Notes: generated from the sequence alone by a model not told the origin. Positions 44,740-63,572 are shown, counted from the stretch's first letter. The stretch: 64,000 nucleotides of DNA from an uncultured Acidobacteriota bacterium (GCA_963824165.1 CAWGOM010000002.1:744286-808285), one strand, 5' to 3'. Made by a program: numbers and translations.

Positions 44740-45422
44740 GCGCCGAGCACCCTGCCGTCCTTCAGGTGGACGACCCGGTCCGCCCGGGCGGCCGCCGCCG
44801 CGGAGTGCGTGGCGAGGAGGAGCGTCACCCCGCGCTCGCGCCGGACCTCGTCGAGGAGCGAGAGCACGGCTTCGCCGTTGCGGCTGTCGAGGTTGCCGGT
44901 CGGCTCGTCGGCCAGAAGCAGCCGGGCGCCGGTCACGAGCGCCCGGGCGATGGCCACCCGCTGCATCTGTCCGCCCGAGAGCTCGTACGGGTGCGCCCCG
45001 GCGCGCGCGGACAGGCCCACGCGCTCGAGCAGGTCTGCGGCGCGCTCGGGCGCGTCGGAGCGGCCGTCGAGACGCCGCGGCAGCTCCACGTTCTCTCCCA
45101 CCGTCAGGTGCGGCAGGAGGTTGAAGAACTGGAAGACCAACCCGACCTCGCGCCGGCGGAACAGGACGAGCTCCCGTTCCGGCAGGGCGCCGACGCTCGC
45201 GCCGGCGACCCGGATCTCGCCCGACGACGGCCGATCGATGCCCCCGGTCAGGTGGAGGAGGGTCGACTTTCCGCTTCCCGACTCGCCGACGAGGGCGAGG
45301 AACTGGCCCGGCGGGACCTCCAGATCGACGCCGTCGAGGGCGACGACGGCCTGTCCGCCGGCGTAGACCTTCGTGACGGCCCGGAAGGAAACGGCGGGCG
45401 CGGCGGGCGGATCGCTCGACAC
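44736..45422 (-). CDS. ABC transporter ATP-binding protein (LolD/MacB-like)
   Basis: GESGSGKST, LSGGQMQR, LLADEPTGNLD. Confidence 0.95.
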   Translation of the reverse strand: MSSDPPAAPAVSFRAVTKVYAGGQAVVALDGVDLEVPPGQFLALVGESGSGKSTLLHLTGGIDRPSSGEIRVAGASVGALPERELVLFRRREVGLVFQFFNLLPHLTVGENVELPRRLDGRSDAPERAADLLERVGLSARAGAHPYELSGGQMQRVAIARALVTGARLLLADEPTGNLDSRNGEAVLSLLDEVRRERGVTLLLATHSAAAAARADRVVHLKDGRVLGA

Positions 45423-45513
45423 GATGCGAGAATACCCGACGGCATCTTCCGTCCTCGCGATCTGTCCGTCGAGCCGAAACCGAAAACGGGAACGAGACTG
45501 GAGACCTGAGACG

Positions 45514-47534: not shown

Positions 47535-47550
47535 CGGGCGCGTCCCGGCG

Positions 47551-48621
47551 TTGAGCGCGCGCCTTCGGGCGGGACTCCTCGCCGCCGGTTTCCTCGCGGC
47601 GCTCGCCGCGCGCCTGGCGCTGCTCCACGCCTTTCCGGGAAACTACGACACCGAGTCCTACGACATCGTCGCGGACGTCGTCACGCGGGGCGGCGACCCG
47701 TACCGCGAGACGACCCGGTACAACTATTCGCCCCTGTGGGCCTTCGTGATCGCGGGAGCCGGGGCGGCGGCGCGGACGTCGGGCGCCTCGCCGACCTCGG
47801 TCCTCGGCCTGCTGTTGCTCGCGGGCGACGTCGCGACGGCGGTCCTCGTGTACCGGCTCGCCCGTCGGCGCCGGTCCGGCGCGGCCTCGGCGCTGGCGGC
47901 CCTCTTCTTCTTCGCCAACCCCGTCTCGATCCTGGTCTCGAGCCATCACCTCCAGTTCGACGGGCTCGCCGTTCTCTTCCTCGTCGCCGCGGTGCTTCTC
48001 TCGGATCGCGGGCGCGACCTGCCGGCCGCGGCGGCGCTCGCGGTTTCCCTCCTCGTCAAGCACGTCACGGCGTTCCATCCGCTGCTCTTCCGCCGCCGGC
48101 CGGGTTGGCGCGGCCTCCTTCCGGCGACTCTTCCCTACGCCGCCTTCGCGGCCTCGTTCCTGCCCTACGCCGCGTCGTGGCGGGAGATCCTCGAGAACGT
48201 GCTTCTCTATCGCGGCGTGACGGGCAACTACGGCATCGAGGCCATGGTGCTCCTGCCCGGCGTGCCCGACTGGGCGCCGGTCCCGATCTTCCTCGCGGCG
48301 GTGGCGGTCGCGGTGTTCTTCCTGCGGCGCGAAGAGCTCGTGCGCGCGAGCCTGCTCCTCTTTCTCGTCGTGCTCGTCTTCGCGCCGGGCTTCGGACGCC
48401 AGTACTGCGTCTGGCCGATCGCCCTCGGCGCGATCTTCGCGGGTCCGGGGTTCTTCCTCTACAGCTTCGTCGCCGCCGCGTTCCTCGTGGGTGCCCTCTT
48501 TCCCGGAGCGCGGGAGATCCTGCCGCTGCCCGGCTGGTACGGGCCGTGGTGGGCCGCGATCGCGTGGCTGCTGTGGGAGCTTCGCGGTCCGCGGGTTAAG
48601 ATCCCGGCGAACTCGCGATGA
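47551..48621 (+). CDS. GT-C-fold membrane glycosyltransferase (GT87/PIG-M-like)
   Basis: First loop NYDTESY...GDPY..TRYNYSPLW, FFANP.SI..S..H.QFD, GFG.QY..W. Confidence 0.7.
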   Translation: MSARLRAGLLAAGFLAALAARLALLHAFPGNYDTESYDIVADVVTRGGDPYRETTRYNYSPLWAFVIAGAGAAARTSGASPTSVLGLLLLAGDVATAVLVYRLARRRRSGAASALAALFFFANPVSILVSSHHLQFDGLAVLFLVAAVLLSDRGRDLPAAAALAVSLLVKHVTAFHPLLFRRRPGWRGLLPATLPYAAFAASFLPYAASWREILENVLLYRGVTGNYGIEAMVLLPGVPDWAPVPIFLAAVAVAVFFLRREELVRASLLLFLVVLVFAPGFGRQYCVWPIALGAIFAGPGFFLYSFVAAAFLVGALFPGAREILPLPGWYGPWWAAIAWLLWELRGPRVKIPANSR

Positions 48622-49565
48622 AAGTCTCGATCGTCGTCCCGGTCTTCAACGAGGAAGGCAACCTGCCGGAGCTGCTGACGCGGCTTTCCGCCGTCATGGA
48701 GGGCACCGGGCGGCCCTACGAGCTCGTGTTCGTCGACGACGGCAGCCGCGACCGGTCGCTGGAGATCCTCAAGGCGGCTTCGCGCGAGCGGCCCGAAACC
48801 GTCCGGGTCCTCGAGCTCGCGCGCAACTTCGGGCAGCACCAGGCGATCCTGGCCGCCTTCGAGAACGTGACCGGCGACGTCGTGGTGACGCTCGACGCCG
48901 ACCTGCAGAATCCTCCCGAGGAGATCCCGAAGCTCCTCGCGAAGTTCGACGAGGGATACGACGTCGTCGGCGGCGTGCGCCAGGACCGCCAGGACTCCTT
49001 CCTGCGCCGGGCGGCCTCGCGCCTCGTCAATCGCGCCACGACCTTCATCACGCGGATGAAGCTCTCGGACTTCGGCTGCATGCTGCGCGCATACTCGAAG
49101 GAGGTCGTCGAGGAGATCAACCGGTGCGACGAGGCCTCGACCTTCATCCCGGCGCTCGGCCAGAGCTTCGCGCGGCGGCCCACGGAGATCCAGGTCGCGC
49201 ACGCCGCGCGGCGGCACGGAGCGTCGAACTACTCGCTCTACCGGCTGATCCGCCTGAACTTCGACCTGATGACCGGTTTCTCCCTCGTGCCGCTCCAGGT
49301 CTTCGGCCTGATGGGCACGGCCGTCGCCTTCGGCGGCGTCGCCTTCGGCCTCTTCCTCTTCGTGCGCCGGCTGGTGGTCGGCGCCGAGGTCGAGGGGGTC
49401 TTCACGCTCTTCGCCATCCTCTTCACGCTTCTCGGGATCGCGATGGCGGGGCTCGGCCTCGTCGGCGAATACGTCGGGCGGATCTATCTCCAGGTCCGCG
49501 GCCGGCCGCGGTTCCGCGTGCGCCAGGTCCACGGAGGCGCCCGGCCGCCGGGCCCGGACGCATGA
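48618..49565 (+). CDS. arnC: Undecaprenyl-phosphate (Ara4FN) glycosyltransferase, GT2
   Basis: [41 protein letters not shown], two C-terminal TMs, GEYVGRIY. Confidence 0.85.
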
Positions 49566-50473
49566 CGGCGCCGCGCATCGCGGTCTTCGCCTACTCGGGG
49601 ACCGGCCACGCCTGCCTCGACGTTCTCCTCAGGCGCGGCCGCCGACCCGTCCTCGTCGCGACGCATCGCGACCTGCCCGAAGAGGCGCGGTGGTTCCCGA
49701 GCGTCGCGGAGCTCGCGCGCGCCCACGGGATCGAGCCGGTCGTCATCGACAACCCGCTCGACCCCGCGGCGATCACGCGGGTGCGGATCGCCGCGCCGGA
49801 CCTGCTCTTCTCCTTCTACTACCGCACTCTCCTGCCGGCGGAGATGCTCGCGGTCCCGCGGCTCGGGGCCTTCAACATGCACGGCTCGCTCCTGCCGAAG
49901 TACCGCGGCCGCGCGCCGGTCAACTGGGCGGTCTTGAAGGGCGAGACGCGCACCGGCGCGACGCTCCACGTCATGACCGAGCGGGCGGACCGGGGCGCGA
50001 TCGTCGACCAGGAAGCCGTGCCGATCGGCTCCGACGACACCGCGATCGACGTCCAGAAGCGGGTGACCGCGGCCGCGGCGGCGATCCTCGAGCGACGCCT
50101 CGAGGAGCTCGAGGCCGGCTCCGCGAAGGCGACGCCTCAGGACGAGACGCGGGCGACCCGCTTCGGGCGGCGGCGGCCCGAGGACGGGCGCATCGACTGG
50201 AGCCGGCCGGCGAAGGAAGTCCACGACCTCGTCCGGGCCGTGACCCACCCGTACCCCGGGGCCTTCACGGACCTGTTCGGCGCGAAGACCTTCGTGTGGC
50301 GCAGCCGGCTGCCGGGCCTGGCGGCGCACGATACGTTCCCCGGCCAGGTCCGCGGCGAGGCCGGCCGGCTCCACGTCGCCTGCGGCGACGACCGGTACGT
50401 GGAGCTGCTGTCCCTCCAGACGGAGGGCGGCGAGGAGACGGACGCGGCGCGGTTTCTCGCGGCGAGGGGGTAG
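49562..50473 (+). CDS. UDP-Ara4N formyltransferase (stand-alone ArnA N-terminal domain)
   Basis: [53 protein letters not shown]. Confidence 0.88.
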
Positions 50474-50475
50474 GG

Positions 50476-51507
50476 ATGCGGATCCTGATTCTCGGCGTCA
50501 ACGGCTTCATCGGCAACGCGCTGACGGAGCGGGTCCTCCAGACGACCGACTGGCACGTCTCGGGACTCGACATCGGCTCGGACAAGATCGCGCCGTTCCT
50601 CGACAACCCGCGCTTCACGTACCTCGAGGGCGACATCGCCATCAACAAGGAGTGGATCGAGTACCAGGTCAAGAAGTGCGACGTGGTGCTGCCGCTCGTC
50701 GCGATCGCGACCCCCTCGGCCTACGTGCGCGAGCCCCTGGCGGTCTTCGAGCTCGACTTCGAGGAGAACCTCCGGATCGTCAAGCAGGCGGTCCGCTACG
50801 CGAAGCGCGTCGTGTTTCCGTCCACCTCCGAGGTCTACGGGATGTGCCCCGACGCCGAGTTCGACGAGGACTCCTCGCCGCTCGTCTACGGCCCGATCCA
50901 GAAGCAGCGCTGGATCTACTCCTGCTCCAAGCAGCTCCTGGACCGCGTGATCTGGGCGTACGGAACGAAGGGGCTGCAGTTCACGCTCTTCCGGCCGTTC
51001 AACTGGTTCGGGCCCCACCTCGACGACATCGATTCCCCCAAGGAGGGCTCGAGCCGGGTGCTGACGCAGTTCCTCCACAACATCCTGTACGGCGAGCCCA
51101 TCAAGCTGGTCGACGGCGGGACGCAGCGGCGGTCCTTCACCTACATCTCGGACGGCATCGACTGCCTGATGAAGATCCTCGAGAACCGCGCCGGCGCGGC
51201 CGACGGGGGGATCTTCAACATCGGCAACCCCGCCAACGACCTGTCGATCCGCGAGCTCGCGCAGCGCATGGTCGCGGCGGTCGGCGCCCATCCCGGATTC
51301 GAGGCCCTCGCGGCGAAGGCGGCGCTGACCGACGTGGCTTCCGGCGCGTACTACGGCCCGGGTTACCAGGACATGCTCACGCGGGTGCCGTCGATCCGGC
51401 GCGCGCGGCAGATTCTCGGCTGGGAGCCGCAGGTCTCCCTCGACGAGGGCATCCGGCGGACCCTCGACTTCTACCTGACGCGGCGCCGTTCCGGGGTCAG
51501 GCCTTGA
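50476..51507 (+). CDS. arnA: UDP-glucuronic acid oxidase/decarboxylase (stand-alone ArnA C-terminal domain)
   Basis: [62 protein letters not shown]. Confidence 0.92.
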
Positions 51508-51592
51508 ATCTGTACTCACATGACGCCGGTCGAGCGCCTGGTTCGCGGCTCTGTTTCTTGAACGACCGAGTACAAAATCAAGGCCTGACCCC
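51493..51592. mobile_element. 100-bp MITE-like element with 25-bp terminal inverted repeats
   Basis: GGGGTCAGGCCTTGAATCTGTACTC ... GAGTACAAAATCAAGGCCTGACCCC (23/25 complementary); more AT-rich than the flanks. Confidence 0.7.
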
Positions 51593-52513
51593 GTGATCGG
51601 TCGCGTCGCCCTCAAGGTCGACTGCGACACCGACGAGGGCACCCGCGACGGCGTGCCGCGCCTGCTCGCGATGTTCGCGGCGCGGGGGATCCGGGCGACG
51701 TTCTTCTTCACGCTCGGGCCCGACCGGTCGGGCCTCGCCGTCCGGCGGATCTTCACCCGCAAGGGCTTCCTGAAGAAGATGCTGCGGTCCCGCGCGCCGT
51801 CGCTCTACGGCTGGAGGACGATGCTCTCGGGGACGCTCCTTCCGGCGCCGATGATCGGCGAGCGCTGCGCGGGCCAGATGCGCGCGGCGGCGAAGGCCGG
51901 GCACGGCACCGGCGTCCACGGCTGGGACCACGTCCGCTGGCACGACGAGCTTCCCGCGATGAGCGCGGAGGAGATCCGGGCCGACTACGGCCGCGCGCAC
52001 GCCGAGTACCTCCGGATCTTCGGCGTGCCCGCCCGCGCGAGCGCCGCGCCCGGGTGGACGGCCGACGCGCGGTCCCTCGAGGCGCAGGAGGAACGCTCGC
52101 TCCTCTTCGCGTCCGACACGCGGGGCGGCTCCTACTTTTTTCCCGAGGCGGGCGGCCGCGTGTTCCGGACCCTCGAGATCCCCACGACCCTGCCGACCCT
52201 CGACGAAACCCTCGCCTGGCCGGAGCTTTCGTCGGACGAAGACCAGCGGGCGTTCTTCCGCAAGGCGGCGAGCGGCACGCACGTGCACACGATCCACGCC
52301 GAGGTCGAGGGGCGGTCCAAGGCGCCGCTCTTCGAGGGGATCCTCGACGACTGGCTCGCGGACGGGGTCGCGTTCCCGCTCCTGTCGGATCTCGCGCGGG
52401 AGGTGCTCGCGCACCACGACGCGATCCCGGTGCGCCGGCTCACCACGACGACGCTGCCCGGGCGCGCCGGGACCGTGGCGACGGGGTGGCCCGAGACGTC
52501 CGGCTCGGCCTGA
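51593..52513 (+). CDS. arnD: Undecaprenyl-P-Ara4FN deformylase (polysaccharide deacetylase family)
   Basis: LKVDCDT..GTRDGVP.L, F.LGPD, HGWDH..W, AAPGW, PTTLPTLDE, TIHAEVEG. Confidence 0.85.
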   Translation: MIGRVALKVDCDTDEGTRDGVPRLLAMFAARGIRATFFFTLGPDRSGLAVRRIFTRKGFLKKMLRSRAPSLYGWRTMLSGTLLPAPMIGERCAGQMRAAAKAGHGTGVHGWDHVRWHDELPAMSAEEIRADYGRAHAEYLRIFGVPARASAAPGWTADARSLEAQEERSLLFASDTRGGSYFFPEAGGRVFRTLEIPTTLPTLDETLAWPELSSDEDQRAFFRKAASGTHVHTIHAEVEGRSKAPLFEGILDDWLADGVAFPLLSDLAREVLAHHDAIPVRRLTTTTLPGRAGTVATGWPETSGSA

Positions 52514-52544: not shown

Positions 52545-53663
52545 GTGACCGAGCGACCGCGGGCCGGCGTGCGGCCGGAGATCTGGATCACCCTCGCCTC
52601 GGTCGCGGGCTCTTTCCTCGTCTACTGGCCGTTCCGCGCGGACATGTCCGTCGTGTACCGCTTCTGGGACGGGCCGAACTACCTCACGGTCGCCCGGACG
52701 CTCTACGACGTCGCGCCCGGCAACCCGCTGCTCGCGTACGTCTACCAGCCCGCGTACTTCCTGACGCACCTGCCGCTCTACCCGCTGTGCGTCCGGGCGC
52801 TCGCGGGGCTCGCGGGGTACGAGCCGGCGCTGCTGCTCGTCTCGGTCCTCGCCTCGGCGGCCGCCGCCGTCCTCTTCTACCGGCTCGCGCGCGACGCGTG
52901 GCGCCTCCCGTCCCCGGAGTTTCTCGCGCTCGTCTTCCTGTTCCTGCCCCCGCGGTGGCTCCTCTATCGCTCGACCGGCGCGACGGAGGCGCTCGCGATG
53001 GCGTTGACGCTGGCGTCGATCGGGTTCTTCGAGAAGTCCCGCTACGGCCGGGCCTCGCTTCTCGGCGGGCTCGCGGCGCTGACGCGCATCTCGGGCCTGA
53101 TGCTCGCTCCCGCGTACGCCGTGGCGCTCGCGCGCGAGCGGAAGTGGCGGGCCTGGCCGTGGCTCGCGCTCATCCCGGCGGGCCTCCTCGCCTACTTCGT
53201 CTTCTGCGCCGTGCGCTTCGGAAATTTCTTCGCCTATCTCGCGCCGCACGGCGAGAAGGTCGCGGCGTTCCGGCCGTTCGGGTTCCTGCCGGCGCTCTTC
53301 GAGAAGGGCCTGTACCACCAGGCCGAGTTCCACATCCTGCTCTTCCTCGTGTACGCCGTCGGCACCTTCCGCCTGCGCGTCCGGTTCCCGGTCCTCTTCT
53401 GGTACTGCCTCTTCGAGCTCGCCCTGCTCGTGTGCGTCTCGACGGAGGACTGGAGCCGGTACTTTCTCGCGATGGCGCCCTTCGCCCTGGTCGTCGGCTA
53501 CCACGACGTCCTCGACACGCGCGCCTTCCGCTGGCTGCTCCCGGTCTTCGCGGCCCTCTCGGTGTACTACGCCTGGAGCGTGATTCCGTTGAACGGCTGC
53601 CGGCCGGACATCTACCAGGGGCTCCTCATGCACCTGGGGCTGGCGCCGGTCCCCGTCCCGTAG
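52545..53663 (+). CDS. GT-C-fold membrane glycosyltransferase (PIG-V/GT76-like)
   Basis: RFWDGPNYL.VA..Y, HLPLYPL..R, TEAL, LAALTRI.G. Confidence 0.7.
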   Translation: MTERPRAGVRPEIWITLASVAGSFLVYWPFRADMSVVYRFWDGPNYLTVARTLYDVAPGNPLLAYVYQPAYFLTHLPLYPLCVRALAGLAGYEPALLLVSVLASAAAAVLFYRLARDAWRLPSPEFLALVFLFLPPRWLLYRSTGATEALAMALTLASIGFFEKSRYGRASLLGGLAALTRISGLMLAPAYAVALARERKWRAWPWLALIPAGLLAYFVFCAVRFGNFFAYLAPHGEKVAAFRPFGFLPALFEKGLYHQAEFHILLFLVYAVGTFRLRVRFPVLFWYCLFELALLVCVSTEDWSRYFLAMAPFALVVGYHDVLDTRAFRWLLPVFAALSVYYAWSVIPLNGCRPDIYQGLLMHLGLAPVPVP

Positions 53664-56040
53664 GCCGGGCCCGCGTCGCCGCCGCCGCGGCGAGGGCCGC
53701 AAGCAGCGCCGCGGCCTGGATCGCGACGCCGCGGCGAAACGGGCCGCGGTCGTACTCGAGCTCGACACGGTGGCGCCCCGCGGGCACCGCCACCGCGAGG
53801 TCGCGGCCGTTGGCGACGCCGACGGGAGCGCGCAGGCCGTCCACGCGCGCGCGCCAGGCCGGGAAGAACGTCCTCGAAAAGAGGAGGTGGCCGGGAGCGG
53901 CCGCGTCGATCGTCGCGGCCGCGCGGTCGGCCCCGAGCGACTCGATCGCCACGCCCGCCTCCGACGGCGCCTGCGTCGGGTCCTCGTCGCGCGGACCGGG
54001 GAACGCGACGTCGGTCGACGGCTCGAACCGGTCCGAGCGGACGAGCTCGAGCGTTCCGGAGAGGGAGCGGCGGCGCCACGCGCGGCCCGCCCAGCGGAGC
54101 TCGGCGACCGGCTCCGGGTTTTCGTAGAGCACCAGCCGCCGGCCCGCCACCGCGAAGCCGGTCGACGCGCGAAAGAGCGGGTGCTCCTCGCCCTCGTCCG
54201 CGAGGGCCCACCGCGCGCCGAACGCGCGCAACAGCCGGTCGCGCTCGGCCGGCGTGGAGGCGTCGGCGACCTCGTTGGCCAGGCGATTGTAGAAGCCGTA
54301 CGAGCCGTCGGGGTCGGTCTCGAAGAGGTATCGGACGCCGAATTCCGCGGCGGTCGCGGGAACGAGTTGCTCGAGCATGACGCGGGCGGTCTTCTCCGAG
54401 CGCGGCAGGTCTCCCGGGGCGTCGACCGGGATCGCGCCGGCGTCGAAGCGGGGAAGCCGCGGCGAGACGTAGAGCCTCCCGTCCCCGGCCACGCGCGAGA
54501 CGAGCGCCGGCGGCCGGGCCAGCTCCGTCTCGCGGGCCGTCACGAAGAGGGGCAGTCCCCAGACGAGTGAGGCGACGAGGGTCAGCAGGCCGAGCACGTA
54601 CCCGGCCTCGCGGCGCACGCGCTTCCAGGCGAGCACGGTCGCGAGCGCGGCCAGCGAGCCGACCAGCGCGTCGCCCCGGACGGCCCCCCGGAACGCCGAG
54701 AGGAACCCGTCCGGGTTGGCGGAGACCGACGCCACCGCGGGCGACGCCCAGGCGTCGAGCGTTCCGCCCGGCGCGGCCATCCACCAGGCGGCCGCCAGGG
54801 CGGCGAGGACCGCCAGGACCGGGACGGCGTCGGCCCGGCCGGCGCGCCGGCGGGCCAGGGCTTCGGCGGCGAGCCCGGCCAGCAGCGCCACGCACAGGGT
54901 CGTGAGCAGGTAGAACTTGATCGGGTAGCGGAGCCTGCGCAGGAACTCGACCGCGTACACGAGTCGATAGAGGGGCAGGGCGAAGCCGAACGCGAGGGCG
55001 AGCGCCAGGAGGCCCCCGCCGGCCAGGGCGGCACAGCGGCGGCTCCAGAAGTCGCGCCGCAGCGCCGCGAGCAGGATCACGACCAGCGGCACGATCCCGA
55101 AGCTCACGCACCAGATGTAGACGATGCCGGCTTCGCCCGAGGGGGCCAGCCAGTTGGCGCCTCCGCCGAGCGTCCCCGGATCGCCGCCGAAGCGGGGAAG
55201 GAGCCATTCGATCGTTCGCGCCGGCGTCAGCGCCGCGGCGCCGAAGGCCTTCTCGGAATAGAGGTGCTGTCCGCGGTAAGTCAGCGGGAAGACCCGGGCG
55301 AGCGGGAGAAGCAGCGGGGCCGCGAGGGCGAGCGCGAGGAGCCCCGCCCCCGCTGTGCCGGCGAGGAGCGCGACGAGCCGCGGCCGTCTCTCTCCGCGCG
55401 GCGCGGAGACGGCGCGCGCCAGGCCGAGCGCGCCGGCGAAGGCCACGGTCAGAAGCGACAGCGCGGGCTCGCCGGCGAGAAGCTGCAACCCGAGCGCGAG
55501 GCCGAGCGCCACGGCGGCCCGCGCGGCAGCCTTTCGTCCCGGCGCGCAGACGAGCGCGAGCGCCGCGGCGGCGCACCAGGGCAGCCATGCGGCGGCGGCG
55601 ATCGAGTTCATGAAGGCCGCGCCGTACGAGAGCACCATGCCGGAAAAGGCGAAGGCCGCGCCCGCGAGAAACGCGGCGTCGTCCGCCAGGCCGAGCTCGC
55701 GGGCGAGCCGCCGCGCGCCGAAGAACGCCCAGAGCACGTGGAGCAGGAAGTGCAGGTTGAAAGCCACGGCGGGCGGGACGGCGAGCTCGAGCAGGAACGT
55801 GGGGTAGAGGAGCACGGCGTTGGGATTCGCGAGCAGCGGCTGGCCGCCCGAGGCCGCCTCATTCACGAAGGGCACCTCGCCCCTGGCCAGCGCGGCCGCG
55901 GCCACGCGCCGCCAGGGCCAGTGCGTGACCTGGGCGTCCCGGAAGACGAGCCGTCGCGTCCCCAAGATCTCGGGCAGGAGCGGGAGGGCGAAGAGTACGA
56001 CGACCGCGAGGCTCGAGGAGAGCGCGCGCCGCGAGGACAT
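53626..56040 (-). CDS. YfhO-like polytopic membrane protein (GT-C fold)
   Basis: FRDA...HWP, P..N....GGQPLLANPN...LYP, RYPIKF, C-terminal PAW.A.VDG....V.VP.G.HRV.L.Y. Confidence 0.78.
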   Translation of the reverse strand: MSSRRALSSSLAVVVLFALPLLPEILGTRRLVFRDAQVTHWPWRRVAAAALARGEVPFVNEAASGGQPLLANPNAVLLYPTFLLELAVPPAVAFNLHFLLHVLWAFFGARRLARELGLADDAAFLAGAAFAFSGMVLSYGAAFMNSIAAAAWLPWCAAAALALVCAPGRKAAARAAVALGLALGLQLLAGEPALSLLTVAFAGALGLARAVSAPRGERRPRLVALLAGTAGAGLLALALAAPLLLPLARVFPLTYRGQHLYSEKAFGAAALTPARTIEWLLPRFGGDPGTLGGGANWLAPSGEAGIVYIWCVSFGIVPLVVILLAALRRDFWSRRCAALAGGGLLALALAFGFALPLYRLVYAVEFLRRLRYPIKFYLLTTLCVALLAGLAAEALARRRAGRADAVPVLAVLAALAAAWWMAAPGGTLDAWASPAVASVSANPDGFLSAFRGAVRGDALVGSLAALATVLAWKRVRREAGYVLGLLTLVASLVWGLPLFVTARETELARPPALVSRVAGDGRLYVSPRLPRFDAGAIPVDAPGDLPRSEKTARVMLEQLVPATAAEFGVRYLFETDPDGSYGFYNRLANEVADASTPAERDRLLRAFGARWALADEGEEHPLFRASTGFAVAGRRLVLYENPEPVAELRWAGRAWRRRSLSGTLELVRSDRFEPSTDVAFPGPRDEDPTQAPSEAGVAIESLGADRAAATIDAAAPGHLLFSRTFFPAWRARVDGLRAPVGVANGRDLAVAVPAGRHRVELEYDRGPFRRGVAIQAAALLAALAAAAATRARPTGRGPAPAPGA

Positions 56041-56068
56041 CGCGAAGAGTGTACAGTGAGCGCCACGC

Positions 56069-57688
56069 ATGATCGACGCGCAAACCCGCGACGCCACGCG
56101 CGCGGCCACGGCGGTCCTCTTCGCGTTCGCCTTCTCGGCCGTCTTCTTCTCGGGTCTCTTTCCGCCCTTTTCCAACCCGAACGAGCTCTCGCGCCTGGAG
56201 GCGGTGGTGGCCGCCGTGGATCACGGCACGTTCGCGATCGACGAGGTGATCCCCCGCCTCGGCGACCACGAGGACAAGGCCGTCTCCGGAGACCGGACCT
56301 ACTCCAACAAGGCTCCGGGGCTCGCGTTCGCGGCCGTCCCCTTCTACGCGCTCTACCGGCTCGCGCTGCCCGAGCCCGGCTCGCCCGCGGCGCCCGTCTT
56401 CCCGTGGCTGCGCGTCCTCACGGTGACCGCGGCGGCCATTCTCGCGCTCGTGCGGCTGCGGCGGCGCCTGGGCCTTCAGATCGAGCCCGCCGCCGTCGCG
56501 CTCCTCTTCTGCGCGGCGGCGCTCGGGACGCCGTACCTCTTCTACGCCCGGTCCTTCTTCGCTCACGCGTGGACCGCGGCGCTCCTCTACCTGGCGTGGG
56601 ACGGCCTGATGACGTCGGACGAGCCCGGCCGTCGACGCGGCGGCTGGCTGGGGCTCGTCGCAGGGCTTCTCGCCGGCTGGGCCGCGATCTCGGAGTACAC
56701 GGTTGCGCCGCTCGCCGTCCTGCTCGCGCTGAGGTCCGCCGCCGGCGGCTCGTGGCGGCGGCTGGCGGCGTTCGCGGCCGGCCTCGCTCTGCCGCTCGCG
56801 CTTCTCGCGGCCTACAACGCGGCCTGCTTCGGCTCGCCGTGGATCCTGTCGTCGGCGCGGGAGGCGTACCCCGCCTACGGCGATCTCGCCTCGAAGGGAC
56901 TCTTCGGCTTCGGCGCGCCGAGCCTCGCCGTCGCGCTGCGATACCTCGTCTCTCCCGAGCGCGGGGTCCTGCTCTTCTCGCCGTTCCTGCTGTGGTGCGT
57001 GCCGGGCTTCTTCCGCTGGTGGCGCTCGGGCCGCGGCCGCGCGGACTGCCTGCTCGCGGCGGCGGCGACGCTGGGCTTCTTCGTGGTCATGACCGGTTAC
57101 CCGAACTGGCACGGGGGCTGGTCCCTCGGGAGCCGTTACCTGCTGCCGATCCTCTTCTTCCCGATCGTGGCCGCGGGCCATGCCCTGGCGACGCCGCTGT
57201 CGCGCGGCCTCTTCGCCGCGGCCGTCGTCTTCTCGGTCGCGAGCCAGTTCCTGCTGTCCTCGACCTTTCCGCACTTTCCGGACAACGTTCCCTGGCCCGC
57301 GGCGACGGGCTCCGCCTGGTTCCTCGCTCGCGGCTGGACGGCGCCGACGCTGGCGGGCATCTCCGGAATCGCGGGTCTCCTGCTTCCGGCCGCCGCCTTC
57401 CTCGCCGCCCTGGCCCTCTCCATCCGGGCGTCCGGCCCGCTCGCGCCGCGCGCCTCCGTGGCCGCGTTGCTCGGAGCGGCGCCGCTCGTCCTTCTGTTGC
57501 TGCGCCCGCCCGAGCTCGTCTACGGGGCGCGGCTGTGGCGGGCGGCGATGTTCGGGGCGTACTCGGGCCGCGACCCCGCGCGCGAGGAGCTCAAGGCCGT
57601 CGCGCTCGAGGCGGCGACCGACGGGCAGCGGCGCCAGGCCCTCGGGGCGTGGCGGATCTACGGGCCGCCGCCCGAACCGGCTCCCTGA
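56069..57688 (+). CDS. Polytopic membrane protein, probable GT-C glycosyltransferase
   Basis: First loop NPNE.SR...G.F.ID...DKA...YSNKAPG, W.GGWS.G.RYL. Confidence 0.62.
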   Translation: MIDAQTRDATRAATAVLFAFAFSAVFFSGLFPPFSNPNELSRLEAVVAAVDHGTFAIDEVIPRLGDHEDKAVSGDRTYSNKAPGLAFAAVPFYALYRLALPEPGSPAAPVFPWLRVLTVTAAAILALVRLRRRLGLQIEPAAVALLFCAAALGTPYLFYARSFFAHAWTAALLYLAWDGLMTSDEPGRRRGGWLGLVAGLLAGWAAISEYTVAPLAVLLALRSAAGGSWRRLAAFAAGLALPLALLAAYNAACFGSPWILSSAREAYPAYGDLASKGLFGFGAPSLAVALRYLVSPERGVLLFSPFLLWCVPGFFRWWRSGRGRADCLLAAAATLGFFVVMTGYPNWHGGWSLGSRYLLPILFFPIVAAGHALATPLSRGLFAAAVVFSVASQFLLSSTFPHFPDNVPWPAATGSAWFLARGWTAPTLAGISGIAGLLLPAAAFLAALALSIRASGPLAPRASVAALLGAAPLVLLLLRPPELVYGARLWRAAMFGAYSGRDPAREELKAVALEAATDGQRRQALGAWRIYGPPPEPAP

Positions 57689-59697
57689 GCGGGGTCGACG
57701 ATCTCGTAGACCGCCCACCGGGGCACCCAGCGGCCCCCGCGGCGGATCGCGGTCTGCGAGCGGTGCAGCAGCCGGACGCTCGAGAGCGGCGGGATCTCGA
57801 GGCCCGGGACGCTGCCGCCGCGCCCTTCGAAGTCGTAGAGGCGCGACTGCATGGTCGCGAAGTACTCGGGGGTGGGCACCTGGCCGCCGGGCGTGTCGCG
57901 GATCAGAGGCGGCCGGCCGAGGTACGAGGCGTAGTCGTTCATGCGGGGCACCAGGTCCGTCGCGACGATCCAGCGCGCGCGGTGCTTTCGCGCGATCGCC
58001 AGCGCCTCCTCCTCGCTTCCCGCGAGGAAGAAGCGGATCGAGTCGAGAAAGCCGTACCCGAAGTTGTTGGCGACGACCGGCAGCCCGGCCTCGTAGAGGA
58101 GGAGGTGCCCCATCGACCAGGGCGCGATCACCGCTGAAGCGCGGGCGAGCGCGGCGGGGAACGGCGGCGGCCCCAGCAGCGCCGGGTCGTAGGCGTCCAC
58201 CGCGTGCGGCAGCTCGGCGCGCATCCAGTCGAGGGTCTCGAAGAGGTCGGAGCCCGGCACGTGAACGCTCGCGAGCTCGGCCGAGAGCCCCTGGCGCATC
58301 GGCAGCGCGAGAACGAGGCCGACGGCGACCGCGGCCGGCGCCCGAAGGAGGCGGCCGGCCGAGGGCACGAGCCGCGGCAGGCGGTTCGCGGCGGCCCTCG
58401 CCGCCTCGACGAGGGCGAGCGCCGAGAGCACCGCCGCGTAGTGGACGTTCAGGCGCTGCGAGAGAGCGAGGAAGAGGACGACCGCGCCCCAGACCGCCAG
58501 GCCGACGTTGACGCCCGGACGAAAGCCCCGCACGGCCCGGCGCGCCCAGAGGAAGATCGCGACGGGGGTCAGGAAGAACGCCGCGGATAGCTGCTGCCAG
58601 GCGAGCGCCGGCCCGTCGGCGAAGAGCGGCCGGGCCTCGAAGATCCCCTTGAGCCAGTCCTTCGGGTAGGAGACGTAGCCGCCCTCGCCCGCCACTTCCT
58701 GCGTCGCCCCGGCGACGTAGCCGATTCCGTTGGTCAGGCCCGCCAGGAGCGGCCGCGCGAAGGGGAGCGTGGCCACGGCGACGGCGGCGACGACGAGAAG
58801 CGTTGTCACGAGCTCGCGGCGCCCGGCCCGCCGCTTCGCCGCGCGCGCGAGGAGGGCCAGCGCGGCCGTGCCTCCGCAGAGCGCCGCCAGAAAGAGCGGC
58901 TGAAAGAAACCGAACGACACGTAGGTCAGCGGCGGGGACAGCCAGCCGAGCCAGGCGGCCGTCGCCGCGCCCGTGACGGCGGCCGGCAGGCCCAGCGTCA
59001 GGACCGCTGCGCGCAGCACGCTGCGCGGGAGCAGGATCGATTCGAGGAAGACCGCGAGAGCGAAAACCGCTCCCAGGAAAACCGCGCCCTGCCAGGCGAG
59101 GACGGCGACCGCGAGAGCGAGCCCCGCCGCCGCCTCCCGCCAGGCCCGGCCGCGCGCTTCCGGATGCTCGCGGCTGCCGAGGAAGAGCACGAGGGCGAGC
59201 AGGCTGCAGAAGGACTCCGCCGCGTGCTGGTCCGTGTGCCCGTACTGCGTCCAGAGGATGTGGGCCGGACAGACCGCGAGAAACGCGGCCGCGGCCACGC
59301 CGGCGGCCGCGCCGTGCAGGCGAAACGCGAGCAGCCCCGCGAGCGCGATCGCGCCGGCCGCGAGCACGACCGGCACCCACGCCGCACCGCGCGCGACGGC
59401 GTCCGTCGAGGCCCCCGGGCCGTCCGCCAGCCGCGCCGGCGCCGCGAGGGCCAGGTCGAAGAGCGGCGGCCAGATCGGGACGCCGCCCTCGGGAAAGTTC
59501 ATGAGCGGATCGAAGACGATCGTGCGCGGGAAATTCGCCGCGGCGAACCGGGCGCGGCGCAGGTGATAGGCGGAGTCCGAGTCGAACGGCCGCAGGACGC
59601 CTCCGGCCGTGACCTGCGCGCGCGTGTGGAGCCGCAGGGCGACGCCGGCGGCGACGGCCGCGCACACGCCGAGCGCCAACGCGAGTCGACGAGTCAC
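57658..59697 (-). CDS. STT3-family oligosaccharyltransferase, archaeal AglB-like
   Basis: DSDSAYHLRR..NFP...FDP..NFP.G..WPPLFD, GHTDQHAAE, GIFEARPL, QRLNVHY, APWSMGH, ANNFG, FFLA.SEEEA. Confidence 0.8.
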   Translation of the reverse strand: MTRRLALALGVCAAVAAGVALRLHTRAQVTAGGVLRPFDSDSAYHLRRARFAAANFPRTIVFDPLMNFPEGGVPIWPPLFDLALAAPARLADGPGASTDAVARGAAWVPVVLAAGAIALAGLLAFRLHGAAAGVAAAAFLAVCPAHILWTQYGHTDQHAAESFCSLLALVLFLGSREHPEARGRAWREAAAGLALAVAVLAWQGAVFLGAVFALAVFLESILLPRSVLRAAVLTLGLPAAVTGAATAAWLGWLSPPLTYVSFGFFQPLFLAALCGGTAALALLARAAKRRAGRRELVTTLLVVAAVAVATLPFARPLLAGLTNGIGYVAGATQEVAGEGGYVSYPKDWLKGIFEARPLFADGPALAWQQLSAAFFLTPVAIFLWARRAVRGFRPGVNVGLAVWGAVVLFLALSQRLNVHYAAVLSALALVEAARAAANRLPRLVPSAGRLLRAPAAVAVGLVLALPMRQGLSAELASVHVPGSDLFETLDWMRAELPHAVDAYDPALLGPPPFPAALARASAVIAPWSMGHLLLYEAGLPVVANNFGYGFLDSIRFFLAGSEEEALAIARKHRARWIVATDLVPRMNDYASYLGRPPLIRDTPGGQVPTPEYFATMQSRLYDFEGRGGSVPGLEIPPLSSVRLLHRSQTAIRRGGRWVPRWAVYEIVDPAQGAGSGGGP

Positions 59698-59764: not shown

Positions 59765-60463
59765 GTGAAGCTCTCCGTCCTGATTCCCGTCTACAACGAG
59801 GAGCGAACGATCGACGAGATCCTTCGCCTCGTCACGAGCGAGCCGACGGAGAAGGAAGTCGTCGTCGTCGACGACGGCTCGACCGACGGCACCCGCGAGA
59901 AGCTTCGCGCCTGGGACGGCCGGAACGGCGTGCGGGTGATCCTCCAGCCGGGTAACTTCGGCAAGGGTCGGGCCGTGGCGGCGGCGCTCGCCGCGGCCCG
60001 CGGCGAGATTCTCCTGATCCAGGACGCGGACCTCGAGTACGACCCGGCCGAGTACCCGATCCTGCTGAAGCCGATCGAGTCCGGCCGCGCCGACGTGGTC
60101 TTCGGGTCCCGATTCATCGGAAGCTCCGAGCACCGCGTCCAGAACTTCTGGCACCAGCAGGGCAACCGGCTGTTGACGCTCATCTCCAACGTGGTGACGG
60201 GCTTGAACCTCTCCGACATGGCGACCTGCTACAAGGCGTTCCACCGGCGCGTGGTGCCGTCGCTCGACCTCCAGTCGCCGGGCTTCGGCATCGACGCGGA
60301 GATCACGGCCAAGGTCGCCCGGGGCGGATTCCGGATCTTCGAGGTGCCGGTGTCCTACTTCGGCCGCTCCCAGGCGGAGGGCAAGAAGATCCGGCTGAAG
60401 GACGGGTTCGCGGCGCTGGTGTCGCTGGCGCGGCACTCGTTCGGGGCGGGCCCGAAGCGTTGA
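59765..60463 (+). CDS. GT2 polyprenyl-phosphate glycosyltransferase (DPM1-like)
   Basis: IPVYNEE, VDDGSTDG, N.GKG.A, IQDADLEYDP, GSRF, DM.TCYK, GKKI...DG. Confidence 0.9.
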   Translation: MKLSVLIPVYNEERTIDEILRLVTSEPTEKEVVVVDDGSTDGTREKLRAWDGRNGVRVILQPGNFGKGRAVAAALAAARGEILLIQDADLEYDPAEYPILLKPIESGRADVVFGSRFIGSSEHRVQNFWHQQGNRLLTLISNVVTGLNLSDMATCYKAFHRRVVPSLDLQSPGFGIDAEITAKVARGGFRIFEVPVSYFGRSQAEGKKIRLKDGFAALVSLARHSFGAGPKR

Positions 60464-62181
60464 GGCCGGCCCTCGGGGTCCTGGCCGCTCTCGCGCTCGC
60501 GGCGGCGGCGGTGTTCCTGGTGCGCGACCACACGCGCGAGGACGCCCTGTCGGCCGACGAGCCGATCCACATCCTCTCCGGCTACTTCGCCGTCGCGAGC
60601 CGGACGGCGATCGTCAACATCGAGCACCCGCCGCTGATGAAGGCGCTCTCCGGCCTCGCGCTCGCGGCCCTCCCGCTCGCCCCGCCCCCGGAGAAGGTCC
60701 CGATGGGGAACCTGTTCCTCGGCTACGGTCCGGACTTCTTCTATCGCAACCGCGTCCCGCCGGACCGGATCATCGCCGCCGCGCGCGCGCCGTTCCTCCT
60801 GGTCCTCGCCGGCCTGCTGCTCGTCGTCTTCTTCGCGGCCCGCTCGCGGTACGGCGTGGCGCCGGCCCTCTTCGCGACGGCGCTCCTCGCCTTCGACCCC
60901 AACCTCCTCGCCCACGCCGGGGTCGTCCACACGGACCTGGGGGCCGCGCTGGCGTTTCTCGCGACGGTGCTCGCCTGGGAGGCGGCGCGCGAGCGCCCGA
61001 CCGCCCTCCGGCTCGCCGGCGCCGCGGCGTGCCTGGGGCTGGCGCTCGTCACGAAGTTCTCGGCCGTGTACCTGGCGCCGATCCTGCTGCTCCAGACGCT
61101 TCTCGCCGCGCGGCGCGAGGGGTCGGGCCGGCGGGTCCTCGCGAGCCTCGGGCGCCTCGCCGCGGTCGTGGCCGGGGCGCTCCTCGTCGTCGTCGCGGTG
61201 TACGCGTCGGTCACGACGGGGATGGACCGGGCCGACCAGAAGACGATCATCCGCGAAAAGGTCGGCGCCCTCGGGAAGGCGCCGGCGCTGGCCGAGAGGA
61301 TCGTCGCCGTTTCCGACGTCTCGGCGCCGCTCGCCCATTACCTCGGAGGCCTGGCTTCGGTCGCGCGGCAGAACGCCGTGGGCGGCGGGATCACGTACCT
61401 GAACGGACGCGTCTCCACCGACGGCTTTCCCGAGTACTTCTTCGTGGCCTTCGCGGTGAAGTCGACCCTCGCGTTCCTCGCCGTGGCTCTCGCCGTCCTC
61501 GCGGCCTCGCTCCTGCGGCGGGCCGGGTTCGCGGAGGAGCTGCGCCTCTTCGGCCTCCCGGTCGTCGTGCTCTTCCTCGCGTCGATCGGCACGACGTACA
61601 ACATCGGGATCCGGCACCTCCTTCCGGTGTACCCGTTTCTCGCGCTCTTCGGCGCCGCGCTCTTCGCGCGGGCCTGGGCGCGCCGGTCCGAGTCGCTCGC
61701 GCGGCGCGCCGCCGCCGGGGTCTGGGCGGCCCTGCCGCTGCTCTCGGCGGTCGAGCTCGCGCGGATCCACCCCCACGAGCTGTCCTACTTCAACCCGCTC
61801 GCCGGCGGGCCGGAAGGCGGCGCCCGGATCCTGACCGATTCCAACGTCGACTGGGGGCTCGACCTGCGGCGCCTCCGGACGGAGCTCGCGCGGCGAGGCG
61901 TCAAGCGCGAGGACCTGATGGTCTCGTACTTCGGAGGCGACAACGTGTCGTACCGGCTGGGCGTCCCCGACTTCTCGGCGCTGCCGGTCGTGCGCGGGCG
62001 CCTGCTGGCGATCTCGGTCTTCCTGCTGACGGCGGGACCGGAATTTTCCGCGTATCATGGCGACGAGACGATGGCGGAGGCGCAGCGCGGGCTGCAGCGC
62101 GTGATCGCGCGCTCGAGGCCGGTCGGCCGCATCGGACATTCGATCTATCTCTTCGAGCTGCCGGAGCCAGAAACGCCGTGA
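60460..62181 (+). CDS. GT-C-fold glycosyltransferase (ArnT/PMT_2-like)
   Basis: ADEP.H..SG, NIEHPPL.K, HTD, TKFS, NIGIRHLLP, L.YFN.L.GG, DSNVDWG. Confidence 0.78.
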   Translation: MRPALGVLAALALAAAAVFLVRDHTREDALSADEPIHILSGYFAVASRTAIVNIEHPPLMKALSGLALAALPLAPPPEKVPMGNLFLGYGPDFFYRNRVPPDRIIAAARAPFLLVLAGLLLVVFFAARSRYGVAPALFATALLAFDPNLLAHAGVVHTDLGAALAFLATVLAWEAARERPTALRLAGAAACLGLALVTKFSAVYLAPILLLQTLLAARREGSGRRVLASLGRLAAVVAGALLVVVAVYASVTTGMDRADQKTIIREKVGALGKAPALAERIVAVSDVSAPLAHYLGGLASVARQNAVGGGITYLNGRVSTDGFPEYFFVAFAVKSTLAFLAVALAVLAASLLRRAGFAEELRLFGLPVVVLFLASIGTTYNIGIRHLLPVYPFLALFGAALFARAWARRSESLARRAAAGVWAALPLLSAVELARIHPHELSYFNPLAGGPEGGARILTDSNVDWGLDLRRLRTELARRGVKREDLMVSYFGGDNVSYRLGVPDFSALPVVRGRLLAISVFLLTAGPEFSAYHGDETMAEAQRGLQRVIARSRPVGRIGHSIYLFELPEPETP

Positions 62182-63572
62182 AGCTGTCGGTCGTGATGCC
62201 CGCCTACAACGAGTCGAAGACGATCCGCGAGATCGTGCGGCGCGTGCAGGCCGTGCCGGTCGAGAAGGAGATCGTCATCGTCGACGACGGCTCGACGGAC
62301 GGAACGCGGGACATCCTGCGGGAGCTCGACGGGAAGGACGGCGTTCGCGTCGTCTTCCAGCCCTTCAACCAGGGCAAGGGGGCGGCCGTCTCCGCCGGGT
62401 TCCGGCACGCGACGGGGGACGTCGTGATCGTGCAGGACGCGGACCTCGAGTACGACCCGATGGAGTATCCGAAGCTGCTCGCCCCGATCGAGCAGGGGCA
62501 CGCCGACGTGGTGTACGGCTCGCGCTTCCTCGGGGGCGGGGCCCGGCGGGTCCTCTACTTCTGGCACACCGTCGGAAATCGCTTCCTCACGCTCGCCTCG
62601 AACATGTTCACCAACCTGAACCTGACGGACATGGAGACCTGCTACAAGATGTTCCGGCGCGAGGTCGTCTCGTCGATGACGATCGAGTCGCGCCGCTTCG
62701 GCATCGAGCCGGAGATCACGGCGAAGGTCGCCCGCCGCGGCTACCGGATCTACGAGGTCCCGATCTCCTACTACGGCCGCACCTACGAGGAAGGCAAGAA
62801 GATCGGCTGGAAGGACGCGGTCTCCGCGCTCTGGACGATCGCGAAGCACTCGATGCGCGAGACCGAGGACCCGAAGAACGTCGGCCACGTCACCCTCGCG
62901 CGCATGGGCAAGCTCGACGCGTACAACCGCTGGCTCGCAGACCGCTTCGAGCGCGCTCTCGGTTCCCGGGTGCTCGAGATCGGCGCCGGGTTCGGCAACA
63001 TGACGCGGTTCATGGTCGGGCGCGAGCTCGTCGTGGCCTCGGATCTGGACCCGGTCGCCCTCGAGTACCTGCGCGGGGCCTTCCGCGAAGACCCGCGCGT
63101 GCGCGTGGCCTCCTACCGGTTCCCGCTGGCGGAGGCCGAGAAGGCCGAGATCCGGTCGCTTCGCGTCGACACCGTCGTCTGCCTGAACGTGCTCGAGCAC
63201 ATCGCGGAGGACGTGGCGACGCTCGCGGATCTCCACTCCCTGATCGCGCCGGGCGGACGGCTGATCCTCATCGTGCCGGCCCTGCAGCGTCTCTTCGGCA
63301 CGCTCGACGAGCACCTTCACCACGTGCGCCGCTACGAGAAGGCGGAGCTCGAGGACAAGGTCCGCGCGGCCGGGTTCGTGCTCGAGGACGTGCGGTTCCT
63401 GAATCGGCCCGGCATCCTCGGCTGGTGGATCAACGGCAAGCTCCTGCGCCGCCGCGTTCTTCCCGCCAGCCAGCTCGCCGCCTTCAAGCTCCTGCTGCCG
63501 ATCCTGAGGCGCGAGGAGAAGAATCCGCCGAGCGTCGGGATGTCCCTGCTCGCGATCGCCCGAAAGCCCTAG
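62178..63572 (+). CDS. GT2 polyprenyl-phosphate glycosyltransferase fused to a class I SAM methyltransferase
   Basis: N-terminal VQDADLEYDP, DMETCYK; C-terminal VLEIGAGFG, NVLEHI.ED, PGG..I..VPA. Confidence 0.88.
   Translation: MKLSVVMPAYNESKTIREIVRRVQAVPVEKEIVIVDDGSTDGTRDILRELDGKDGVRVVFQPFNQGKGAAVSAGFRHATGDVVIVQDADLEYDPMEYPKLLAPIEQGHADVVYGSRFLGGGARRVLYFWHTVGNRFLTLASNMFTNLNLTDMETCYKMFRREVVSSMTIESRRFGIEPEITAKVARRGYRIYEVPISYYGRTYEEGKKIGWKDAVSALWTIAKHSMRETEDPKNVGHVTLARMGKLDAYNRWLADRFERALGSRVLEIGAGFGNMTRFMVGRELVVASDLDPVALEYLRGAFREDPRVRVASYRFPLAEAEKAEIRSLRVDTVVCLNVLEHIAEDVATLADLHSLIAPGGRLILIVPALQRLFGTLDEHLHHVRRYEKAELEDKVRAAGFVLEDVRFLNRPGILGWWINGKLLRRRVLPASQLAAFKLLLPILRREEKNPPSVGMSLLAIARKP

Follow-up and report, generated by a model that had tools for sequence, protein, structure and literature searches.

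We analysed a stretch of 64,000 nucleotides from an uncultured Acidobacteriota bacterium (GCA_963824165.1, CAWGOM010000002.1:744286-808285), referred to as the window, and followed up one of its genes, gene C, which encodes an STT3/AglB-like glycosyltransferase with PWSMG in place of the WWDYG motif. The host is a soil bacterium whose assembly comprises 4.06 Mb in 17 contigs, with an estimated completeness of 68%, and gene C is the one STT3-family match in this genome. It has 679 codons with a GTG start and no internal stop, and its GC content at third codon positions is 0.93, as in the real genes of the 72%-GC host genome. The gene-caller version (P0001) has 669 amino acids and starts 10 codons later; the N-termini of homologues match the 679-amino-acid form. 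The residue equivalences given below were taken from profile alignments to AfAglB-L (3waj), the archaeal N-oligosaccharyltransferase of Archaeoglobus fulgidus, with numbers counted from the alignment rows, and the roles of its residues are those given in an excerpt of PMC8342417. The gene and its motifs are as follows.

57658-59697, minus strand: gene C, STT3/AglB-like GT-C glycosyltransferase of the short type, with a 13-transmembrane-like N-terminal part and a small periplasmic C-terminal domain (Pfam, TIGR04154, AlphaFold2 and Foldseek)
59554-59583, minus strand: external loop 1 motif DSDSAYHLRR; D41 corresponds to Asp47 of AfAglB-L (in GNDPWYYYR), the first DXD, a metal ligand
59224-59235, minus strand: TDQH; D156 and H158 correspond to Asp161 and His163 of AfAglB-L (in NDHH), the second DXD, metal ligands
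58636-58647, minus strand: GIFE at the TIXE position of external loop 5 (EL5); E354 corresponds to Glu360 of AfAglB-L (in TIAE)
58453-58458, minus strand: QR (Q414-R415); R415 corresponds to Arg426 of AfAglB-L (in NR), near the donor phosphate
58105-58122, minus strand: PWSMGH in place of WWDYG(H/N), from alignments and conservation
58057-58074, minus strand: VANNFG, matching VANNFQ of the short A. fulgidus AglBs
57931-57963, minus strand: ATDLVPRMNDY, the region equivalent to the DK motif; D581 aligns with Asp611 of AfAglB-L, and Lys618 has no aligned counterpart

The first-pass annotation of the window had listed the STT3 hallmark segments of this gene, and every one of them was recovered, in the same order, upon re-translation from the window coordinates. 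The gene C product passed the Pfam STT3 model (PF02516) with 45.1 bits against a cut-off of 24.5. The AglB_core-like domain PF22627 scored 24.3 bits, under its gathering cut-off of 27, and this label has been precomputed on many close homologues, so that it is borderline for the gene C product. The sole NCBIfam match was TIGR04154, the euryarchaeal archaeosortase A-associated oligosaccharyltransferase (OST), with an E-value of 1.6e-64 and 218.6 bits, below the cut-off of 450; the alignment extends over query residues 10-625 and model positions 3-652 of 831.

An AlphaFold2 model of the gene C product, built on a 105-sequence alignment, had a mean predicted local distance difference test score (pLDDT) of 95.4 and a predicted template modelling (TM) score of 0.94. 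Its only internal dip (pLDDT 70-82) lies at residues 331-350, just N-terminal of GIFE, in the EL5-equivalent loop. The Foldseek search against PDB gave AfAglB-L (7e9s_A) as the best match, with an E-value of 5.3e-25 and a TM score on the query (TMq) of 0.77. Ranks 1-4 were all AfAglB-L (TMq 0.72-0.77) and ranks 5-16 were eukaryotic STT3. The TMq was 0.57-0.69 for human and yeast STT3, 0.53-0.59 for PglB, and 0.58-0.60 for the C-mannosyltransferase DPY19 (0.61-0.62 on the target, TMt); ArnT (0.36-0.39), PMT, and the mycobacterial arabinosyltransferases were all far lower. A Pfam STT3 match and a structural match were thus both obtained. The gene C product is a member of the STT3/AglB family with the AglB fold. 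The first-pass annotation had described it as an AglB-like protein that keeps its acidic catalytic positions; this is supported, for the metal positions as well, by Pfam, by the profile alignment, and by conservation among 135 family members.

A profile built from the bacterial clade only (A2) found AfAglB-L at 9.6e-29, AfAglB-S1 at 1.5e-16, and human STT3A at 3.5e-6, and did not recover PglB at E ≤ 0.01. Single-sequence phmmer against PDB gave only 3VGP (1e-9) and 3VU0 (2.1e-8) at E < 1e-3; at E ≤ 1 it returned neither AfAglB-L nor PglB, and beyond the short AglB domains only weak STT3A matches. The profile A2 and the Foldseek TM values bear out the view of the first-pass annotation that this protein is closer to euryarchaeal AglB than to PglB.

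AfAglB-L (PDB 3WAJ, 3WAK, 5GMY, 7E9S) is both the best structural and the best profile match to the gene C product. The two share the metal site (D47/D161/H163 in AfAglB-L, D41/D156/H158 here), the EL5 Glu (E360, here E354), the Arg of the phosphate site (R426, here R415), and a His directly after the motif Gly. They differ in that AfAglB-L has 875 amino acids with extra C-terminal beta domains, which are missing from the 679-amino-acid gene C product, carries WWDYG rather than PWSMG, and bears Lys618 in a DK segment that is an insertion relative to the bacterial family; their identity in the structural alignment is 19-20%. The short C-terminal domain is shared with A. fulgidus AglB-S1 (AF_0329, 3VGP) and AglB-S2 (AF_0040, 3VU0), and the stretch xW..G..lLY....vVaNNF....D...FF.A.SEeEA..IA.k...R is common to the gene C product and these two proteins. 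In the 3VGP and 3VU0 alignments, VANNFGYG...FFLAGSEEEALAIA pairs with VANNFQAG...FFTAKSEDEAIKIA. AglB-S1 and AglB-S2 differ from the gene C product in carrying WWDYGN, and they have been solved only as soluble domains. Campylobacter lari PglB (3RCE, 5OGL, 6GXC), a single-subunit bacterial enzyme, belongs to the same fold class but is much more distant, and it has WWDYG and the MI motif (PMC8342417, excerpt).

Conservation was counted in an alignment of 135 family members, with identities down to about 31-40%. D41 was found in 133 members (the other two have gaps), H45 in 133, and R48 in 134. Position 156 is D in 126 members and E in nine, and position 158 is H in 129 and N in six. E354 and Q414 are present in all 135, I352 in 131, R415 in 132, and N545, F546, and G547 in 133 each. 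In AfAglB, Asp47, Asp161, and His163 are metal ligands, Glu360 lies within the TIXE strand that pairs with the acceptor sequon and contacts the catalytic site, and Arg426 is described as 'close to the phosphate site' (PMC8342417, excerpt). The catalytic set, consisting of the metal site, the EL5 Glu, and the phosphate Arg, is strictly conserved. Since these positions are under strict selection, the gene C product is almost certainly an active enzyme. A catalytically dead scaffold or a decaying gene would agree with the missing WWD and with the relative in genome G120, which was matched in three pieces, but we consider it very improbable in view of the intact reading frame, the third-position GC of 0.93, the conserved synteny, and the catalytic and many other residues that are invariant down to about 40% identity.

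Across the three domains, the WWDYG motif counts as a universal hallmark of N-oligosaccharyltransferases; it is conserved in Stt3, AglB, and PglB, and together with the DK or MI motif it forms the Ser/Thr pocket (PMC8342417, excerpt); this agrees with the role in binding the +2 Ser/Thr that the first-pass annotation had given it. APWSMGH of the gene C product aligns on SWWDYGN of 3VGP and 3VU0 in the phmmer alignments and on WWDYGH 550-555 of AfAglB-L in the profile alignments. The protein does not fit the WWDYG/WWDXG pattern, of which it retains just the second Trp and the Gly.

The replacement is fixed in the clade. Among the 120 close homologues listed (60-86% identical, plus the window protein itself at 100%), the motif reads PWSLG in 95, PWSMG in 22, PWALG in two, and PWSVG in one; those with names are metagenome-assembled genomes (MAGs) of Thermoanaerobaculia/Acidobacteriota. 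In the 135-member alignment, P526 is present in 133, W527, G530, and H531 in all 135, and S528 in 130, with Ala in the other five. A regular-expression search over 73 genome loci, kept from a one-genome-per-species scan, and six loci of sister families gave PWSLG 60 times, PWSMG nine times, PWSAG three times, PWALG twice, and PWTLG once; it also gave two spurious matches in other frames, and four sister-family loci escaped it through the downstream part of the pattern. The homologues of the sister families read PW[S/A]xGH, including PWALGH and PWAMGH. The first-pass annotation had proposed to check whether PWS.G is fixed in homologues; it proved to be so in the 120 homologues, the 135-member alignment, and the regular-expression search, and WWD is not retained there.

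The second part of the pocket may have changed as well. The part of AfAglB-L that holds Lys618 is inserted with respect to the family profile, and a conserved ATDLxPRMNDY stands in its place, as judged from sequence alignment only. In this region D581 is found in 130 of the 135 members, R585 in 121, D588 in 112 (E in 13 more), and Y589 in 134. Because P-W-[S/A]-x-G-H is as fixed as the catalytic residues, it is a selected replacement, and neither decay nor a chance or one-off change. The replacement of the pocket by another conserved motif speaks in favour of an acceptor contact that differs yet is still specific. The EL5 Glu of OSTs helps bind and activate the acceptor amide (PMC8342417, excerpt), and the retained TIXE-type strand and Glu (I352, E354) argue mildly for a peptide amide as the acceptor; O-linkage or a non-protein acceptor is possible.

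An exhaustive HMMER scan of 1.84 billion cluster representatives gave 1989 matches at E ≤ 1e-3, 990 at ≤ 1e-10, and 77 at ≤ 1e-30. We then inspected 103 representatives of at least 550 amino acids from the best 150 of the 1989. The motif site was found to be highly variable among them (APWGLGH, ARWQLGH, SAWGDGH, ARWDYGH, etc.), WWDYGN was present only in a minority, and only W527 and G530 stayed constant at the motif. In A1, an alignment of 105 rows that combines the query and 17 close homologues with 87 of these representatives, only D41 and G530 are invariant, and H45, R48, D63, D156, H158, E354, and W527 are found in at least 90% of the rows.

This variability bears on the possibility that the gene C product is an ordinary N-oligosaccharyltransferase which still reads N-x-S/T and tolerates P-W-S in place of W-W-D. 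Neither the second Trp nor the Gly varies, Ser528 (in 130 of 135 members, otherwise Ala) could give or take a hydrogen bond, the other OST motifs are all intact, and an AglJ-like GT2 gene adjoins gene C as in archaeal Agl clusters. However, the hydroxyl is lost with Ala528 in five members and in PWALGH and PWAMGH of the sister families, the first Trp is Pro in 133 of the 135, the Lys of the DK motif has no aligned counterpart, and a site so variable over the 103 representatives is unlike that of every characterised OST described in the excerpt of PMC8342417. We therefore regard a canonical N-x-S/T enzyme as improbable.

A tree was calculated from A1 by a quick maximum-likelihood method after removal of the motif columns; it is unrooted, 39 of its 102 inner branches are starred and 37 unresolved, and several long-branch warnings were given. 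The window protein falls in a group of 34 rows, of which 32 have PWS or PWA (93% by the Shimodaira-Hasegawa-like approximate likelihood ratio test, SH-aLRT), and eight of the nine WWD rows form one clade (99% SH-aLRT). Five of ten clusters that we looked up have names, and all five are euryarchaeal (Methanothrix, Methanomethylovorans, Halobacteriota, Euryarchaeota, and 'archaeosortase A-associated'). The names found in ten clusters of distant relatives without WWD were one Omnitrophota and one Thermoanaerobaculia. The nearest relatives that bear WWDYG are euryarchaeal archaeosortase A-associated AglBs. The TIGR04154 name is borne by those of Methanomethylovorans, a Halobacteriota MAG, and JGI cluster P0241, and the Methanothrix cluster is named plain 'Oligosaccharyl transferase'. 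The gene C product differs from the TIGR04154 proteins in that its host is a bacterium, WWD is missing, and its score is far below the cut-off.

A few bacterial homologues within the euryarchaeal clade have been reported previously and were read as archaea-to-bacteria transfers (Lombard 2016; PMC4973528, excerpt). Our literature search found no description of the PWS clade or of bacterial AglB homologues without WWD. The literature uses of 'AglB-like' and 'STT3-like' that we checked concern other things, as far as the excerpted texts go.

The one-genome-per-species scan found 193 clade relatives, and the 73 loci kept are all from Thermoanaerobaculia/Acidobacteriota MAGs. In a sample of 201 genomes of the class, 66 genomes gave a match at E ≤ 1e-5. 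Matches were found in 26 of the 27 genomes of the window's own family, and in 17 of 19 and three of three genomes of two sister families in the same order. Elsewhere in the class there were only weak matches (E 9e-21 or weaker), except one at 2.2e-58. The PWS clade belongs to one order of Thermoanaerobaculia (Acidobacteriota).

A second, much weaker STT3-like match is present in several genomes of this class sample. One MAG has, besides the copy at locus L031, a second STT3-like copy at L071 (CAVUIX010000050.1), which is 57% identical, reads PWSLG, and lacks all five conserved neighbours described below. At G120:C1:224749-226846, the match is split into three neighbouring parts that differ in frame or contain a stop; a broken copy and an error of assembly are both possible.

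Five genes around gene C form a conserved block with it. Synteny was examined in the 47 of the 73 loci that have at least 6 kb of flank on both sides.

53626-56175, minus strand: gene A, YfhO-like GT-C of about 815-849 amino acids (ESM Atlas; 46 of 47 loci)
56069-57688, plus strand: gene B, distant PMT-like GT-C, a polytopic membrane protein of 539 amino acids (ESM Atlas; 46 of 47 loci)
59768-60463, plus strand: gene D, GT2, Dpm1/AglJ-like polyprenyl-phosphate sugar synthase (Pfam Glycos_transf_2, 119 bits; 46 of 47 loci)
60460-62181, plus strand: gene E, PMT_2/PMT-like GT-C (Pfam PMT_2, 28.4 bits, cut-off 26.1; 45 of 47 loci)
62178-63572, plus strand: gene F, Dpm1/AglJ-like GT2 fused to a S-adenosylmethionine (SAM) methyltransferase (Pfam GT2, 140 bits; Methyltransf_12, 49.8 bits; 46 of 47 loci)

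The order F- E- D- C+ B- A+ was found in 45 of the 47 loci; the two exceptions were L059, without a match to gene E, and L071, without any of the neighbours. Neither gene A nor gene B has a Pfam match. The nearest ESM Atlas clusters of gene A (0.99-1.00) have YfhO in 44-61% of their members, and the ESM Atlas neighbours of gene B (0.98) have PMT_2/PMT in 11-20%; gene B also matches the LA_3751/2 family with 29.9 bits, far below the cut-off. Genes B and C are convergent, and their 3' ends overlap by 31 nucleotides (57658-57688). Gene D is divergent from gene C, and its longest open reading frame (ORF) starts at 59609. The best NCBIfam match of gene D is AglJ (TIGR04182), with 138.5 bits against a cut-off of 325. 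The stop and start codons overlap by 4 nucleotides between D and E (60460-60463, TTGA) and between E and F (62178-62181, GTGA), which suggests that D, E, and F are translationally coupled.

The block is partly retained in the sister families, where a homologue of about 40% identity is flanked by E-like and F-like genes in four of the six loci fetched. Two of these four also gave B-like matches, and the C-terminal third of gene A was only weakly matched (27-31% identity). L079 and L080 showed no such flanking. ArnC-like and ArnD-like genes lie within about 10 kb of the homologue in three of the four.

To our knowledge, all GT-C enzymes use polyprenyl-phosphate-linked donors. Three-component polyprenyl-phosphate-sugar systems consist of a GtrB/CsbB-type GT2 with a GT-C such as YfhO, GtrC, or ArnT. 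The present locus looks as if it works likewise, with a Dpm1-like GT2 beside a GT-C and further GT2/GT-C pairs in the island around it, but the GT-Cs of the known systems are not STT3-fold relatives at this level, as the low TMq of ArnT shows. We found no GtrA/ArnEF-type flippase among the ORFs scanned with family libraries; a systematic search of small ORFs was not part of this. Monophosphate-type donors are used by Euryarchaeota, the group from which AfAglB comes (PMC8342417, excerpt). Given that gene C is tightly paired with an AglJ/Dpm1-like GT2 and is of euryarchaeal ancestry, the most economical guess for the donor is a sugar or short glycan linked to a monophosphate.

The block lies within a larger glycan island, which has the following features upstream.

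45373-47534: Wzm/Wzt, with a Wzt_C domain (family scan)
47551-48621: GT87-like GT-C (family scan)
48618-49565: ArnC-like GT2 (370 bits, below the cut-off of 529)
within 49690-51507: UDP-4-keto-pentose/UDP-xylose synthase (559 bits, above the NCBIfam cut-off)
51593-52513: ArnD-like deformylase (223 bits, below the cut-off of 382)

Also upstream is a gene for a membrane protein of 381 amino acids with weak similarity to a 'cell surface glycopolymer formation' family. The ORFs scanned at 45373-52513 showed neither an ArnB-type aminotransferase nor a formyltransferase domain. A further YfhO-like gene lies at 36392-38437. An apparent frameshift at 36.4-40.0 kb resolved into two separate genes, one YfhO-like and one for an amino acid permease, which a long spurious ORF of high GC content overlies. 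Beyond the end of the window, the extended locus (L075) contains a polytopic membrane protein without a Pfam match and two more YfhO-like genes.

These neighbours bring in a second possibility, that the acceptor is not a protein and is instead lipid A or another glycolipid, a polysaccharide, or a lipid-linked intermediate, the AglB scaffold having been recruited away from proteins within an envelope glycan island. The ArnC-like, UDP-4-keto-pentose/UDP-xylose synthase, ArnD-like, Wzm/Wzt, GT87-like, and several YfhO-like genes of the island agree with this, as do the ArnC-like and ArnD-like genes near the homologue in sister-family loci and the loss of the Ser/Thr pocket, the chief feature specific to peptides. 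On the other side, the EL5 TIXE-type strand and Glu, which pair with the acceptor peptide in AfAglB (PMC8342417, excerpt), are strictly kept here. The structural neighbours with TM above 0.6 (AglB, STT3, and DPY19) all act on peptides, and ArnT reaches a TMq of just 0.36-0.39. We consider a non-protein acceptor unlikely on balance, though a serious rival and the most probable of the alternatives to a protein acceptor read by a new rule.

The window also holds two paralogous secreted proteins of about 160-180 amino acids (40052-40594 and 40676-41164), which have no Pfam match, a signal-peptide-like start, and a Ser/Thr/Pro-rich tail ending in PTPVP. They could be glycosylation substrates; nothing ties them to the gene C cluster. 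A C-terminal '...PVP' shared by three proteins was considered as a sorting tag and rejected, as two of the three are these paralogues and the third is unrelated DNA.

Three tandem type IV pilin/type II secretion system G-like genes (N_methyl 41 bits, GFTLIE N-terminus) were found outside the window, 11.5-13.5 kb past gene C and with YfhO-like GT-C genes on their flanks. Their coordinates in locus L075 (on G000:C2) are as follows.

L075:7786-8319: first pilin-like gene
L075:8562-9047: second pilin-like gene
L075:9269-9751: third pilin-like gene

The three are 90-99% identical to each other, and their GC content at first codon positions is 0.49, versus about 0.7-0.8 in neighbouring genes. Pilin distances across genomes were taken from the matches listed in the class-sample scans. 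In 18 genomes of the window's family (G000, G024, G028, G032, G036, G056, G064, G068, G072, G076, G092, G120, G128, G132, G160, G164, G168, and G184), the pilins and the STT3-like gene share a contig and are 9-19 kb apart. Their spacing amounts to about 50-171 kb in eight genomes of a sister family (G014, G019, G048, G088, G140, G144, G148, and G176), and about 257 kb in G080. The pilin family itself was found in all 201 genomes of the class sample, with or without an STT3-like gene. B-family GT-C genes were found 0.7-8.6 kb from pilins in ten genomes without linkage between pilin and STT3-like gene (G066, G094, G012, G039, G055, G087, G107, G151, G143, and G080); six of these have no STT3-like match, three have only weak ones, and the tenth is G080. 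A weak match to the STT3 query (E 2.5e-10) directly adjoins a pilin gene in G012. Within the class, it is the B family and not the STT3-like gene that shows the most consistent linkage of a GT-C to pilins. Because B-family genes lie near pilins without STT3-like linkage and pilins are class-wide, the association of pilins with GT-C genes is older and wider than the STT3-like gene and does not point to this enzyme in particular. Pilins as the target of the gene C product stay a weak lead, since the sister family lacks the linkage and pilins occur throughout the class.

Taken together, the gene C product is most likely a periplasmic enzyme that uses a polyprenyl-phosphate sugar and follows a non-canonical acceptor rule. 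It would be an active GT-C glycosyltransferase descended from a euryarchaeal-type AglB, which works at the periplasmic face, where a polyprenyl phosphate carrier supplies it with a sugar or short glycan; the carrier would probably be charged by the divergent AglJ/Dpm1-like GT2 of gene D. The sugar would be passed to an acceptor chosen otherwise than by the N-x-S/T rule, for which the amide of an Asn in a protein of the envelope or surface is the likeliest candidate, and the other GT-Cs of the block (YfhO-like and PMT-like) may act on the same product, before or after. To an active transferase with a non-canonical and probably protein acceptor rule we give an even chance.

Several observations weigh against this interpretation. 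W527 is invariant and a hydroxyl remains at position 528, and as Ser528 could hydrogen-bond, a hydroxyl-reading pocket for the +2 Ser/Thr is possible. The Arn-like, UDP-4-keto-pentose synthase, Wzm/Wzt, and YfhO-like neighbours are typical of lipid or polysaccharide decoration. The pilin link is confined to the window's own family. Finally, the core block has no identified initiating phosphoglycosyltransferase, flippase, or cytoplasmic glycan-extending glycosyltransferase, and for this reason the nature of the donor is a guess.

A more specific version of the non-canonical protein acceptor is doubtful. Here the gene C product would be a bacterial N-glycosyltransferase of archaeal descent, free of the N-x-S/T rule, which begins the glycosylation of proteins with a polyprenyl-monophosphate sugar made by the AglJ-like GT2. 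The YfhO-like and PMT-like GT-Cs would extend the glycan sugar by sugar in the periplasm, and the nearby tandem type IV pilins (about 10-19 kb away) would be a target in the window's family. If this version is true, the many WWD-less AglB-like genes across bacteria would represent a hidden, sequon-independent branch of N-glycosylation.

This bacterial clade keeps the whole catalytic apparatus of AglB with the pocket swapped for another fixed motif, and the wider family (1989 representatives) varies freely at that site. If proteins are still glycosylated, the clade would show how acceptor choice can be rewired, and it may provide transferases for glyco-engineering that are unbound by N-x-S/T. 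If lipids or polysaccharides are the acceptors, an OST scaffold would have been recruited to a new class of substrate. Either way, the conserved six-gene block is a concrete, clonable system.

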